NCBI GenBank assembly: GCA_040830765.1
Contig: JBFOMH010000004.1
Location: 32,001-96,000, forward strand
DNA length: 64,000 nt
Origin: Puniceicoccaceae bacterium
GTDB taxonomy: Bacteria > Verrucomicrobiota > Verrucomicrobiia > Opitutales > Oceanipulchritudinaceae
Direction of reading: 5' to 3'
Both the position numbers and the translations under genes were made by a program. This document shows positions 16,504-29,809 of this stretch, piece after piece. The notes under the pieces are model-generated. The model was not told the origin of the DNA and did no database searches. It saw only the letters and a list, made by a program, of their open reading frames with translations. The stretch's first letter is position 1; the number at the start of each line of letters is the position of its first letter.

Positions 16504-17355
16504 TTAGAGCCGGCAGGTCCGGATGTCCTGGGCGATGATGCCCTTGCCGCCCAATTCGCTCAGTTCGTCGATGATCCTGTTCAAACCGGCCGACTTGACC
16601 ATGGCGGCAACCGCCATCCAGCCCTCTTCGCTGACCGGGGAAACGGTCGGACTCTTGACCCCCGGGGTGATGCGGCAGGCTGCCTCCAGCGCGTCGCTGG
16701 GAATAACATACTCCAGCAGGACATATTCCCGCGCTACAAGAATGCCCTCGAGACGCTTGATGAGGAGGTCCAGTCCCGCGACCGCCTCTGTCTCCTGGCG
16801 CTGGATGAGGATTGCTTCCGAACGGAGAACTGGTTCCCCGATAATCTCCAGTCCGGCCTCCACCAGCGTTCTTCCGGATTCAACGACATCCGCGATGGCA
16901 TCGGCAACACCCAGCTGGATGGAAATTTCCACCGCCCCGTCCAGGCGAACGGTCTTGGCTTCAATGCCCCTTTCCTGGAGATCCGCCCGGACAATGTTCG
17001 GATAGCTGGTGGCAATCCGCATTCCCGCGAGGCCGGAAGGATCCAGCCCCTGGTCCTTTGGCGCGGCATAGCAAAAGCGGGACTTACCGAAATTCAGGGC
17101 CATGCATTCCGTCACCGGTGCCTTCGAGTCCACAGCGAGGTCCCGTCCGGTAATGCCGGCATGAATGAGGCCGGACCCGACGTAGACAGCAATGTCACGC
17201 GGCCTCAAGAAGATGAACTCCACCTCGTGCTCCGCATCGCGGACAACCAGTTCGCGACTGTGACGGCGACAGGCATACCCAGCCTCACTTAATATCTTCA
17301 CGGCCCCCTCGGAAAGGGCCCCCTTGTTTGGAATAGCCAGTTTCAACATTTCCAT
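16504..17355 (-). CDS. hisG: ATP phosphoribosyltransferase, long form
   Basis: LAIPNKGALS, LRPRDIA, GITGRD, IATSYP, LDGAVE, DVVESGRTL plus C-terminal regulatory domain; start 17355 or 17349. Confidence 0.96.
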   Translation of the reverse strand: MEMLKLAIPNKGALSEGAVKILSEAGYACRRHSRELVVRDAEHEVEFIFLRPRDIAVYVGSGLIHAGITGRDLAVDSKAPVTECMALNFGKSRFCYAAPKDQGLDPSGLAGMRIATSYPNIVRADLQERGIEAKTVRLDGAVEISIQLGVADAIADVVESGRTLVEAGLEIIGEPVLRSEAILIQRQETEAVAGLDLLIKRLEGILVAREYVLLEYVIPSDALEAACRITPGVKSPTVSPVSEEGWMAVAAMVKSAGLNRIIDELSELGGKGIIAQDIRTCRL

Positions 17356-17365
17356 ATCCCTCCCC

Positions 17366-17629
17366 TTAAAGGTATCGGTAGACATCCTCCAGTTTCAATT
17401 CGTTGGCCAGCATCATGACCTGGGCGTAGTACAGGAGCTGGGAGATTTCCTCAGCCGCCTCTTCCTTGCTCTCATAACGCGAGGCCATCCACACTTCCCC
17501 GGCCTCCTCGATCAGCTTTTTGCCAATGGCATGCTTGCCCCGCGCCAGGAGCTTGACCGTCCCGGATTCCGGGTCGCCGCGTTCCGCCTTTTCTGACAAC
17601 TCAGCGAATAAACTTTCAAAATCTTTCAT
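17366..17629 (-). CDS. hisE: Phosphoribosyl-ATP pyrophosphohydrolase (monofunctional)
   Basis: [11 protein letters not shown]...[13 protein letters not shown]...EEISQLLY; directly upstream of hisG. Confidence 0.93.
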
Positions 17630-17682
17630 GAACCGACCAACAAAACGCCTCCTGCCCTTTCCCACAATGGCAAATTTTCCTC

Positions 17683-17709
17683 TTTGACATGATTTTTACA
17701 TTTGTAAAA
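17683..17709. promoter_or_regulatory. Candidate operator/promoter between hisE and the response regulator
   Basis: TTGACA at 17684-17689; direct repeats TTTGACAT/TTTTACAT 11 bp apart; palindrome TTTTACA-tt-TGTAAAA (17694-17709). Confidence 0.45.
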
Positions 17710-17750: not shown

Positions 17751-18518
17751 ATGGCGAAACCAAAACCACTCATACTGATCGTCGAGGACGATCCTGAACT
17801 TGCCCAGTTGATTTCCGACCAGCTGGAATCGGCAGGAATGCTGACCCAGGTCCATCACCGGGCCGCCAACGTTACCCGCTACCTGCAGAACAACTTTGCC
17901 AACCTGATGTTGCTGGACGTCAACCTTCCGGACCAGTCGGGATTTGCCCTAGTTGACACCCTCAAGCAGGAGGACATCGACCTTCCGGTCATCTTCCTGA
18001 CGGGTAACGACAGCGAAACGGACCGCGTCAAGGGCCTGGAAATGGGCGGAGACGACTACATTACCAAGCCCTTCAGCTTCAGTGAGCTGGTGGCCCGGAT
18101 CAATGCCGTCCTGCGCCGCGCGGAGACCTCCAAGGATGACAAGGTGACCAAGAACGCCAGTGTCTCGGAGGAACCCTTTGAGTTCCAGGGGGCGATGGTG
18201 AATCCGGAACGGATGGAAATCGGCTTCCCGGATGGGGAGTCGGTCAAGATTGGGCGCAAGGAACTGGGCATCCTGTCCTTCCTCAATTCCAATCCGAACA
18301 CGGTCATCACCCGCCGGACCCTCATCCACGGCGTCTGGGGCATCCATGCCGACGTCCGCAGCCGCAGTCTTGACCAGTACATCGTCAAGGTCCGGGGCCT
18401 CTACCAGAAGCACGGACTCAACCTGGATGCGTTCAAGACCATCCATGGTGTGGGCTACATCTACAACACCGAGGGGGAGGCGGATGAAGCCGAGTCCACG
18501 GAGAGCCCGGTAGAGTAG
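17751..18518 (+). CDS. OmpR/PhoB-family response regulator
   Basis: Receiver IVEDD, LLDVNLPD, FLTG, ITKPF; winged helix VWG...RSLDQYIVKVR...TIHGVGY; AGGAG upstream of ATG. Confidence 0.93.
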   Translation: MAKPKPLILIVEDDPELAQLISDQLESAGMLTQVHHRAANVTRYLQNNFANLMLLDVNLPDQSGFALVDTLKQEDIDLPVIFLTGNDSETDRVKGLEMGGDDYITKPFSFSELVARINAVLRRAETSKDDKVTKNASVSEEPFEFQGAMVNPERMEIGFPDGESVKIGRKELGILSFLNSNPNTVITRRTLIHGVWGIHADVRSRSLDQYIVKVRGLYQKHGLNLDAFKTIHGVGYIYNTEGEADEAESTESPVE

Positions 18519-18529
18519 GCTCCCTGCCC

Positions 18530-19186
18530 ATGGAACTGGAACCGAAAACGATCCGGGTCCTTGGAGCCCTGATGGAGAAGGCCCGTACAACCCCGGAAAG
18601 CTACCCCCTTACCCTCAACGCGCTGGTCCATGCCTGTAACCAGAAGACCAGCCGGGACCCCGTGACGGACTATGACGAGGACGAGGTACTGGACGCGCTG
18701 GACGCGCTGCGGGAAATGGGATTCGTCATGCGGGTCGATCTGGCCGGCTCACGAACCGCCAAATTCCGGGAGAACCTGAGTACCCAATGGGACCTGAGTG
18801 CTGAAGAATATGCCCTCCTGGCCACCCTCTTCCTGCGGGGTGCACAGACCCCCGGGCAGCTCCGCCAGCGTTCCGACCGCATGCACCCGTTTGCTGACTT
18901 GCAGCAGGTGAATGATTGTCTGCACCAGATGCAGGAACGGGAGGAAGAGCCGCATTGCCTCGTCCGGTCGCTGGAACGCGCCGCCGGGACCAAGGAGATC
19001 CGCTGGGAACACACCTTTTTACCGGAATCCGCCCCGGCAGCTGGGATTGTTGAAGAGGAGGAGCAGAAACTTCCACCCCCGCAAAACCAGCAACCCAGCC
19101 GGATTGACCAGCTGGAGGAAAGACTGGCGGCATTTGAAAACCGCCTCAAGGCCATCGAGGAGCTGCTCCATGAGCTCAACGACTGA
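18530..19186 (+). CDS. yceH: YceH family protein (DUF480)
   Basis: RVLGALMEKARTTPESYPLTLNALVHACNQKTSRDPV, LRGAQTPGQLRQR, C-terminal coiled coil. Confidence 0.9.
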   Translation: MELEPKTIRVLGALMEKARTTPESYPLTLNALVHACNQKTSRDPVTDYDEDEVLDALDALREMGFVMRVDLAGSRTAKFRENLSTQWDLSAEEYALLATLFLRGAQTPGQLRQRSDRMHPFADLQQVNDCLHQMQEREEEPHCLVRSLERAAGTKEIRWEHTFLPESAPAAGIVEEEEQKLPPPQNQQPSRIDQLEERLAAFENRLKAIEELLHELND

Positions 19187-20492
19187 ACCCACGGGGAACG
19201 GTCTGGTTCTCCTCGACCACAAGACGGTCATCAAGGGGAAGTTTCCACCACTGGAGGTCTATCCGCTTGATGCCCCGACCGGATCCGCCTGGGTGGGTGA
19301 GTTTGACGGAAAGGTGGCATGGCTGTCACTGGGTGACCTCGACGAAAACGCCATCCGCCGATACTGGAAAGGGGAAGTCCGGATCGCAGATGAAGGCCGC
19401 ATCGGTCCTGGGGACCTGTTTGAGGCTTTCCAGGGACAAGCCCGGCTGGAACTGGTGCCCGTCGGGACTGCGTTCCAGCTGTCGGTCTGGCAGGAGCTGG
19501 TTCGTATTCCTTTTGCCACTACACTGACCTATGGGGAACTGGCCGAACGGCTTGGCTCGCCTTCCAAGGCAAGGGCTGTCGGCACGGCAGTGGGGGCCAA
19601 CCCCATCGCCTGGCTCATTCCCTGCCACCGGATCCTTCCGGCTGGGGGCGGCATTGGCAGCTACCGCTGGGGCAGCGCGATCAAGGAGAGCCTCCTGAAC
19701 TGGGAAAACCAGCCCCATCCCACCGGCGCTCCCGATCAGGATGTCGAGGACATCCGCAAGCTGGAAGCGATGCTGCTCAATGCCCAGCGCTTTGAGGACA
19801 TCGCCAAGCTGGCCGGGCACATTGCCCATGACTTGAACAACCTCCTCGCCCCCATCCGGATGGCGACCGAGTTACTGAAGCGCAAACTGGAAGATGATTC
19901 GGTCGGGCGTTATGTGGAAATCATCGAGACCAGTACCGGCCGGGCCCGGGCGGTGATCCAGGAAATCCTTACCTATGCGAGGGAATCGGAAAGCGCGGAC
20001 GCGGAAGTGATCGACATCAACCAGCTTCTCGAGGAACTGGAAGGTCTGGCAGATGATACTTTCCCGGATACGATTACCCTGTCATTTGACTATGATCCGG
20101 AAACTCCCCTGGTGAGCATTGCCCCGCACCAGCTGCACCGCTCCATCCTCAATCTTCTGGTCAATGCCCGGGACGCCATTTCCGGCAGCGGCGAAATCCG
20201 GGTCAAAGTCAGCACCCATGATTTGGAAATGCGGGTCTGCGTCGGGGACCGGTGCATTGTCCCGGGACGTTATGCCTGTATTTCCGTTTCGGATACGGGT
20301 TGTGGCATCAGTCCGGAAATCCGGGAGGAAATATTTGATCCCTTCTTCACCACCAAGCCGAAGGAGAAAGGTACGGGCCTCGGGCTGGCCTCGGTCTTCG
20401 GGATCATCGCCCGATCGGGTGGATTCATCGACCTCGAATCAATCGAGGGCAAGGGCTCGACATTCCATCTGTTCCTGCCTGAAGCAGGATGA
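19170..20492 (+). CDS. Fusion of methylated-DNA--protein-cysteine methyltransferase (Ogt/AGT) and histidine kinase (HisKA + HATPase_c)
   Basis: 440 aa from ATG 19170. AGT: GTAFQ..VW, TYGELA, RAVG, ANP, IPCHR, YRWG, LLNWE. Kinase: AHDLNNLL, NLLVNARDA, DTGCGI, IFDPFFTTK, GTGLGL. Confidence 0.9.
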   Translation: MSSTTEPTGNGLVLLDHKTVIKGKFPPLEVYPLDAPTGSAWVGEFDGKVAWLSLGDLDENAIRRYWKGEVRIADEGRIGPGDLFEAFQGQARLELVPVGTAFQLSVWQELVRIPFATTLTYGELAERLGSPSKARAVGTAVGANPIAWLIPCHRILPAGGGIGSYRWGSAIKESLLNWENQPHPTGAPDQDVEDIRKLEAMLLNAQRFEDIAKLAGHIAHDLNNLLAPIRMATELLKRKLEDDSVGRYVEIIETSTGRARAVIQEILTYARESESADAEVIDINQLLEELEGLADDTFPDTITLSFDYDPETPLVSIAPHQLHRSILNLLVNARDAISGSGEIRVKVSTHDLEMRVCVGDRCIVPGRYACISVSDTGCGISPEIREEIFDPFFTTKPKEKGTGLGLASVFGIIARSGGFIDLESIEGKGSTFHLFLPEAG

Positions 20493-20500
20493 ATGGCCCG

Positions 20501-20800
20501 TTATTCCTTTTTCTCAGGAGCAGCTTCTGCCTCGGGGGCTTCCGCAGCGGGCGCCGGTGGCGGCACCTCTTTGGCGGCTGGTGGAGCCGGCTTCTTTTCC
20601 GGCTCAACGGAATCCATGGCTTCCTGAAAATCGTCCTGCACTTCCTGGGCGGCCTTCTTGAATTCCTTCATGGACTTGCCCAGCCCCTTGGCCAGTTCCG
20701 GAAGCTTCTTGGCCCCAAACAAAAGCAGAATGATAACAAGGATAATCAGCAGCTCGGGACCACCGAAACCCTGAATAAATGCTGGATGGAGTAAATTCAT
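20501..20800 (-). CDS. tatA: Twin-arginine translocase TatA/TatE
   Basis: [38 protein letters not shown] plus Pro/Ala/Glu tail. Confidence 0.93.
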
Positions 20801-20934
20801 CAACTTCAACCATAAGGTGGGCGGGGCATCTGTAAAGGATAAGAAACAGCTGCCATGGAATGCCGGGAATGTTCTTCGCGCTTGCAAAGTCGCCCGGCCA
20901 TTTGCTTCCTTTGTAGGGGAAGTTTCCCACTGCC

Positions 20935-28720: not shown

Positions 28721-29809
28721 ATGGGCGCATTCCCCGAAAGTCGTCCAACCACATCCCCCGATACGAAGCAAGCAGCGCTGATATGCCCGGAAGATGTGGA
28801 TTGGATTTTTGACGTTGATACACTCCGTTCCGCCGGAGGGGAAACGTTGATGCGGCTACATGGATTGGAAGAGGCGCCGAAGGACTATCCCCACTATCCC
28901 TTTAACCTGAGCAACAGCTCTGCCGTCATCTGGGACCAGACGGTCCGGAAGCTTTCCATGGCAGCCGGGGAATCCCACCTCATCGTCACCGGGCACAGCC
29001 GCAGCGAGGCCCAGGACATTGTCTTCTATGCCCGCATCGCCGGATACCGTGAGGAAGGCCTGCCGCGGATTGCCGCCACTTTCCAGAAGATTGACCAATC
29101 GAGTTACCAGACGGTAGCCGACTCCACCCGTCAAAACTGGCTCTATCTCCTTCACGAGATCAAGAACCCGATCTCCATCCTCAAGACCGCCGAGGACCTG
29201 GAGTTCCAGAAGGCGACTGGTGGAGTGAGTCCCGAAGAGGCCTCCCAGACCCGGCTCTTTGCCATGGCCTGCCTCGAGGACCACCTGCGCAACGGGGTCT
29301 TCCTGGCCACTGAGGATTCACGGATGATCCCCAGTCACCCTGAGCCGCTTGACCTGAAGATCTTCCTCGACGATGTCCGCGCAACCTTCCAGACCCTCCT
29401 GCGCCTGCAGAATAACACACTGGAAGTGAAGCTGGATATCGACACCCACCAGGTTGCCCGGATCGACCGCACCCTGCTGGCCCAGCTGCTCAATAACCTT
29501 CTCCTGAACAAGATGAACGTCCTCCAGGGAGAGACCGTTGTCCTCGAGTGCTCCCTCGGCAGTTCGAGGCATGACGGAAGCGGGACCCACCTTGTCATCA
29601 CCATCGAGGACGAGGGACCGCCCTTCCCGGAATTTGTCCTCCACGGCGGTGAACAGGAAATCAACCTTGAGGGCCTCCTCCAAGTGCAGCGCAGCTCCGG
29701 TTTAGGCTTGCCGATTTGCCGAAGAATTGCCTCCGTAATGGGAGGAGAAATCAAGTTCTACAACGATGCGCCAAAAACCCGCATCCGTATCTGGTTGCCC
29801 CTTGAATAG
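28721..29809 (+). CDS. Cytoplasmic sensor histidine kinase, atypical ATP-binding boxes
   Basis: H-box LHEIKNPISIL, QLLNNLLLN, IEDEG, SGLGLPIC, MGGEI; no TM segment. Confidence 0.75.
   Translation: MGAFPESRPTTSPDTKQAALICPEDVDWIFDVDTLRSAGGETLMRLHGLEEAPKDYPHYPFNLSNSSAVIWDQTVRKLSMAAGESHLIVTGHSRSEAQDIVFYARIAGYREEGLPRIAATFQKIDQSSYQTVADSTRQNWLYLLHEIKNPISILKTAEDLEFQKATGGVSPEEASQTRLFAMACLEDHLRNGVFLATEDSRMIPSHPEPLDLKIFLDDVRATFQTLLRLQNNTLEVKLDIDTHQVARIDRTLLAQLLNNLLLNKMNVLQGETVVLECSLGSSRHDGSGTHLVITIEDEGPPFPEFVLHGGEQEINLEGLLQVQRSSGLGLPICRRIASVMGGEIKFYNDAPKTRIRIWLPLE

Follow-up and report, generated by a model that had tools for sequence, protein, structure and literature searches.

In a bacterium of the family Puniceicoccaceae an O6-alkylguanine alkyltransferase (AGT) and a histidine kinase are encoded as one protein, a real and apparently undescribed architecture with a clear history. 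The gene lies in the 64,000-nucleotide stretch that was analysed (contig JBFOMH010000004.1 of assembly GCA_040830765.1, positions 32,001 to 96,000; "the window" below), and the features of its locus are collected in Table 1. By sequence the protein is an AGT plus a class I histidine kinase, with the corresponding activities presumed, and our best reading, which we hold at about an even chance, is that of a repair domain in working order, carried by a kinase that has no need of it.

Table 1. Features of the fusion locus, in window coordinates
Feature	Position	Strand	Basis or remark
hisE-hisG, divergent left flank	16504..17665	-	context
Inverted repeat TTTACA-NN-TGTAAA upstream of regulator	17695..17708	.	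conservation
OmpR-family response regulator, first gene of run	17751..18518	+	Pfam, synteny
DUF480 (YceH-like) gene	18530..19186	+	17 nt overlap with fusion start
AGT-histidine kinase fusion gene, 440 aa	19170..20492	+	stop-free translation
AGT domain, aa about 10-180, N-terminal subdomain and HTH	19197..19709	+	Pfam, alignment, AlphaFold
Pro/Gly-rich linker, aa 181-194, modal length conserved	19710..19751	+	alignment, model
Helix leading into DHp, aa 195-212	19752..19805	+	alignment, model
HisKA/DHp domain, His220 at 19827, H-box HDLNN	19806..19985	+	Pfam, alignment
HATPase_c with N, G1, F and G2 boxes	20124..20486	+	Pfam, alignment
tatA, convergent right flank	20501..20803	-	context

The original prediction, made from the sequence alone, had described an uninterrupted frame, a complete set of AGT motifs, a kinase with all its boxes and no transmembrane, PAS or receiver element, and in these respects it was borne out. 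The AGT residues Y121, R135, N144 and E179 are present, as are K172 and a PCHR motif with Cys152 (codon starting at 19623), and the kinase has its phosphoacceptor histidine and four intact boxes at the expected places. Pfam matches DNA_binding_1 (aa 101-180), HisKA (213-272) and HATPase_c (319-439), and over the full chain it finds no PAS, receiver, Ada zinc finger or AraC HTH; inspection of the sequence and the model revealed no evident membrane segment. The AGT half scores 92.4 bits with TIGR00589 against a cut-off of 46.4, and the HisKA half matches PF00512 above its cut-off. In the AlphaFold model aa 10-180 form an AGT of two subdomains (pLDDT by block mostly 82-94), followed by a stretch with pLDDT below 50 (aa 183-191) and a single long helix (190-239). 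The pTM of the monomer model is 0.49, and the AGT and kinase domains are therefore not fixed relative to each other in the monomer; prediction of a complex between the AGT domain and the kinase dimer gave 0.06, 0.35 and 0.01 in its runs, against a mark of 0.32, and weighs on neither side. A start at the ATG at 18912, from which the frame is also open, was rejected, as homologues begin at the ATG at 19170, which overlaps the DUF480 stop.

All three domains are found in 48 of the 120 homologue clusters listed (query included), with a 49th truncated, giving a family of about 50 sequence clusters, and the fusion is thus not unique to this genome. Those fused members that bear a name are from Puniceicoccaceae or Oceanipulchritudo, and one of them (P0023, WP_163964149.1) belongs to a cultured species, O. 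coccoides. The junction is bridged, with neither indel nor joint, by contigs from three of the four runs compared (those with a word share of at least 0.5). Two of the bridging runs come from one study, one of them possibly the window's source, and the third from a second study, whose contig differs by a single base within the kinase part; the fourth run covers the junction only piecewise. Contigs from RNA libraries span the locus as well, though such contigs cannot show transcription. An assembly artefact or a recent neutral read-through has virtually no chance of being the explanation and is already refuted by the family, with its several sources including a cultured species, and by the bridging contigs, with purifying selection adding to the case. 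The one circumstance that speaks for an artefact is a relative, P0042 of genome G023, whose N-terminus lies at a chimeric contig edge and was discarded as such. In the same genome, L117 1-320 (G023:C60) is a chimeric-looking contig start, made of foreign sequence and the C-terminal half of an AGT, and the matching N-terminal half was found at the end of C120.

Residue conservation was read from an alignment of 45 fused sequences, 46-87% identical to the query, from which P0008 and P0044 (N-terminus short), P0042 and P0074 were left out. Cys152, H153, Y121, R135, N144, K172 and E179 are invariant in all 45, as are H220, D221 and N224 (the phospho-His, the acidic residue at H+1 and the T/N at H+4) and N332, D375, G377, G379, G403 and G405 of the HATPase_c boxes. 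One sub-clade of fused proteins (P0059, P0062, P0063, P0065, P0121; L123) stands on a long branch in the kinase tree and differs in the helix that precedes the histidine; its catalytic residues are intact, and its function may have changed. Two further AGT sequences deserve mention: P0263, an AGT of the fused clade on a 1-kb contig, ends just past the linker and represents a secondary split or a frameshift, and in P0264, an AGT-like protein outside the fused clade, the catalytic Cys is replaced by Ser (PSHR).

The kinase orthologue is restricted, among 37 family genomes, to the window's marine, Oceanipulchritudo-like genus of Opitutales, and no further case was seen in a 301-genome sample of the order. 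Among 1.84 billion representatives, three of the best 150 match both domains, in a search that reaches kinase types scoring at least 257 bits, and all three belong to the fused family. The AGT region in proteins of 771-2200 aa yielded no AGT-kinase fusion among 436 candidates, which is weak evidence. From these searches the fusion has one origin and, as far as searched, a narrow range. A scan of contigs that took up generic kinase motifs drew in 80 unrelated kinases.

Within the genus the locus exists in three states. In 12 of the 13 genomes the gene stands between divergent hisEG and convergent tatA, downstream of the OmpR-family regulator; the remaining genome (G016, 84% complete) gave no match. 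Seven genomes have the regulator, a DUF480 gene and the AGT-kinase, counting G023, in which the fusion is split over two contigs, one piece with a chimeric edge. Three have the regulator, DUF480 and a kinase of 263-277 aa with no sensor at all, and two (G015 and G025) have the regulator, a separate ogt and a kinase whose N-terminal domain resembles PAS_3 (look-alike scores 0.95-0.96). Six loci from metagenomes, one of them probably from the same organism as G024, divide into four fused and two sensorless. The PAS-kinase and PAS-kinase-receiver proteins of the same lineage (P0068-P0084), which share with the fusion the helix before the DHp domain and the kinase, are its direct, uncharacterised ancestral form, and those of the P0068 and P0071 types sit at the very locus of the fusion, with a PAS_3-like sensor instead of the AGT. 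The forms with a receiver (P0072, P0077-P0084, P0122 and P0125) are likewise uncharacterised and ancestral to the fused kinase, with a PAS domain that Pfam misses; order-wide, no PAS-kinase-receiver form was found in 301 genomes, with four candidates scored per genome.

The trees of the two domains tell how the change took place. The kinase tree sets the fused and sensorless forms apart from the PAS forms as a single clade (100/97, and 95/97 with a subset of 42 rows). The AGT tree places the separate ogt of G015 and G025 beside the fused AGTs, as the sister of them all (98/91), and the two together have as their own sister a group made up mainly of AraC-AGT proteins (99/96). Both trees therefore show that the fusion arose by deletion of the PAS domain and joining of the kinase to the ogt upstream, which puts the AGT in the sensor slot; the original prediction, in placing it in the sensor position, was literally correct, the AGT having taken the place of the ancestral PAS. 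The helix before the DHp domain (aa 195-212) is a heritage of the PAS-kinase ancestor and is retained in the sensorless forms. The latter are nested among the fused ones: a tree that unites all fused forms in one clade is rejected (p-AU 0.014), whereas one that so unites the sensorless forms is compatible with the data (p-AU 0.31), which fits a single loss of the AGT, both tests leaving out P0050 and P0067 as possible fragments. The AGT was therefore lost at least once and perhaps up to three times; repeated loss, our first reading, is weakened, as one loss is unrejected. The start seen in many fused proteins, which stems from the overlap with the DUF480 stop, is of the kind that also opens 17 of the 19 sensorless ones, and the sensorless form is thus the product of an internal in-frame deletion.

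Both halves of the fusion are under purifying selection. Between the window and G017, dN/dS is 0.08-0.12 for the AGT, 0 for the DHp domain and 0.06 for the CA domain; in other fused pairs the AGT value is 0.21-0.46, mostly exceeding that of the kinase. The sensorless kinases are constrained as strongly as the fused ones, with 0.07 and 0.09 for CA and 0 and 0.01 for DHp in two pairs, the second near saturation. In four of the seven fused genomes (68, 97, 98 and 99% complete) the fusion is the sole PF01035 gene found, two of the others having an Ada and one an AraC-AGT, while all three sensorless genomes have another AGT gene (an intact AraC-AGT in two, a fragment in one); these counts are low and come from related genomes. 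As the fusion is often the only AGT, a role in repair is enough to account for an AGT that stays intact.

Put together as a mechanism, the preferred reading runs as follows. The ancestor had the regulator, a separate ogt and the PAS-kinase in a row, and a deletion took out the stop codon of ogt together with the PAS sensor, so that two neighbours in one operon became a single gene. The product would be a suicide alkyltransferase in working order, held by a short and flexible linker to a kinase/phosphatase core that is soluble and dimeric. The AGT would be maintained for DNA repair, often as the cell's only one, and the kinase for its own signalling, with an output that depends on how abundant it is or on a partner in trans. 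Alkylation would reach the kinase only indirectly, with repaired molecules destabilised and turned over. This account draws on sequence, family, synteny, order of events and selection, and it takes the domains to be active enzymes, allosteric coupling to be absent and the signalling partner to be a presumed one. Two observations sit less well with it, namely that the fusion persists across sequences only 46-47% identical and that the spacing between Cys152 and His220 is exactly 68 residues in 32 of 48 cases; in addition, the sensorless kinase could have changed its role.

The original prediction had gone further and proposed that repair or lesion binding switches the kinase in an Ada-like response. 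An alkylation-gated kinase, with the AGT co-opted as its input after the loss of PAS, is a plausible reading, if not the one that we favour. Lesion binding might draw both AGT domains of the dimer to DNA, or methylation of Cys152 might open the AGT and release or remove the kinase core; either would change how kinase and phosphatase activity toward a regulator are balanced, a regulator that may be the OmpR-family protein encoded two genes upstream. Such gating would suit an AGT standing exactly in the slot of the deleted PAS, the invariance of Cys152 and Arg135 alongside that of His220, Asp221 and Asn224, the modal spacing, the position of ogt between regulator and kinase already before the fusion, and the sister relation of the domain to the AraC-AGT regulator subfamily. 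Alkylation is also described as destabilising and opening AGTs (PMC10779285, available text of section 3.3), and the Ada zinc-finger domain is not seen in five of the seven fused genomes, so a substitute sensor would have room there. Against gating, derived lineages deleted the AGT and went on constraining the kinase, no other repair gene is found among the recognised neighbours of the locus, and the source genome already has a canonical Ada, which comprises a zinc finger, an AraC part and an AGT (L111 7431-8615, G000:C8) and was found in only two of the 13 genus genomes. The neighbouring regulator is widespread in genomes that lack this kinase. A kinase switched by repair, and the Ada-like response that it would drive, are unsupported so far.

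The linker bears on the same question. Its mean identity across the family is 15%, against 65% for the catalytic part of the AGT and 76% for the DHp domain, and proline occurs in 42 of 48 linkers. Cys-His spacings of 63, 65, 66, 67, 68, 69 and 71 were seen, with no seven-residue steps, whereas coiled-coil-coupled sensors are described, in the available text of PMC6798134, as varying in length by steps of seven; the fusion has neither their continuous helical linker nor their heptad pattern, which tells against gating of that kind. The linker thus excludes a rigid helical relay, yet allows coupling by unfolding, tethering or turnover. The ancestral PAS spacer is likewise variable in sequence and nearly fixed in length (51 in 14 of 18 usable rows), and since the PAS, presumably a real sensor, was similarly attached, a loose linker is compatible with coupling. 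That a spacing of 68 prevails despite such low linker identity suggests a geometric constraint.

The choice of ligand for experiments is affected by the pocket, which is of the Ada type: Ala147 (44 of 45 sequences) and Trp167 (43 of 45) align with residues of E. coli Ada-C, and the residues of Ada-C at these positions are tied to O6-benzylguanine resistance (PMC10779285, in the text available). Because of these two residues O6-benzylguanine, which had been put forward as a probe, may fail and is probably unsuitable for the fusion.

The OmpR-family regulator, the most obvious candidate for a partner, is 77-97% identical within the genus, and it is matched in 221 of 401 order genomes, being single-copy in much of the order and usually without an adjoining kinase. 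It is retained even in genomes of 0.7-1 Mb, among them five of 0.8-0.9 Mb with only two or three receivers, whose kinases match best to genes on contigs C24 and C31 of the source genome rather than to the fusion; the source genome itself has 35 receiver matches. Of 40 loci that hold the regulator in genomes outside the genus, some of them ending at contig edges, none has an AGT, PAS domain, DUF480 or fused-type kinase nearby; four of the 40 have weak kinase matches, on the opposite strand. Regulator and kinase are co-directional at the same locus in the 12 genomes, but they are not distributed alike across the order, the kinase orthologue having been found only in the genus. From this distribution the regulator is a core orphan that was joined by the kinase within the genus, which speaks against gating through it, and it is a candidate essential master regulator of Opitutales. 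Cognate pairing of the regulator with the fused kinase is possible; that a suicide repair enzyme was recruited as kinase sensor and feeds alkylation status into this order-wide regulator seems to us less likely than not. Upstream of the regulator is a possible operator, TTTACA-NN-TGTAAA, present at 11 of 11 genus loci and exact at 7 of 17 other family loci; in the genome it occurs exactly just once, where about 0.08 copies would be expected. No copy lies near ada in the source genome, a further point against an alkylation response, and scans of the locus for promoters and terminators gave chance level only.

The DUF480 gene raises another alternative, which we consider quite unlikely: that its protein, acting in trans, is the real input of the kinase, with the AGT a passenger. 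The gene reached the locus on the same branch as the loss of PAS, is found on other contigs in both PAS-kinase genomes, and stands directly upstream of the kinase in all ten fused or sensorless genomes and all six metagenome loci. At 10 of the 11 loci listed it runs into the start of the kinase gene; on this view the two are translationally coupled, and the DUF480 product has a coiled-coil-like C-terminal segment that might engage the helix in front of the DHp domain. DUF480 is, on the other hand, present in 26 of 37 family genomes, and none of 15 copies outside the fused and sensorless group has an AGT or this kinase within 1.5 kb; occurring without the kinase, it therefore has a kinase-independent function, and the adjacency, being of single origin, may be an accident. 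Nothing relevant on DUF480 or yceH was seen among the literature matches listed.

Among the known systems that come close, E. coli Ada likewise unites an AGT with a signalling output in one chain. The best cellular matches of the fusion's AGT include Ada-C (1SFE), with pocket residues common to both. Ada, however, has a zinc finger and an AraC HTH, whereas the fusion has neither, its AGT being N-terminal and its partner a kinase, and the Ada signal is methylation of Cys38 in the N-terminal zinc site, not of the AGT cysteine (PMC10779285, available text). AraC-AGT proteins (PF12833 and PF01035, 270-320 aa) are the nearest non-fused relatives of the AGT over most of the domain; their AraC domains are absent from the fusion, whose immediate parent is a stand-alone ogt. 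The AGT fusions named in the available text of PMC10779285 are Ada, AGT-EndoV of Ferroplasma, ATL-EndoV and C. elegans AGT-2, none with a kinase; the partners in the last three are nucleases or histone-like, and the fusion described here keeps a full two-subdomain AGT. On the kinase side, the DHp-CA core is that of the CckA/VirA/NtrB-type kinases, the best match to a solved fold being CckA (5IDJ, E 5.9e-19, 36% identity). Unlike CckA, with its PAS sensors and C-terminal receiver, the fusion is without PAS, receiver or evident membrane anchor, and it scores 188 bits against a CckA family cut-off of 1000. No publication on an AGT-kinase fusion was found in the full-text literature searched, which covers few subscription journals, in keeping with the earlier impression of an uncharacterised architecture, and the accessible part of a two-component review (PMC12471899) yielded no mention of 'DNA damage'.

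The fusion thus adds to the natural AGT fusions one for which that literature gave no earlier description. It also represents an unusually complete exchange of sensors, in which the ancestor (PAS), the swap (AGT) and the loss (sensorless) survive at one locus in one genus; with three surviving states and a protein from a cultured species, the gain and loss of kinase inputs are directly testable. Should the AGT gate the kinase after all, a DNA lesion would be tied directly to two-component signalling, the protein would offer a natural model on which to build a covalent biosensor that counts lesions, and the corresponding phosphorelay-based alkylation response would have both its precursor (ogt and PAS-kinase) and its sensorless derivatives extant. 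Elsewhere in the window, positions 28721-29809 encode a HATPase_c protein with no HisKA match, possibly a divergent kinase, and between 40000 and 62000 the G+C content drops from about 0.58 to 0.40-0.53, which suggests an acquired region.
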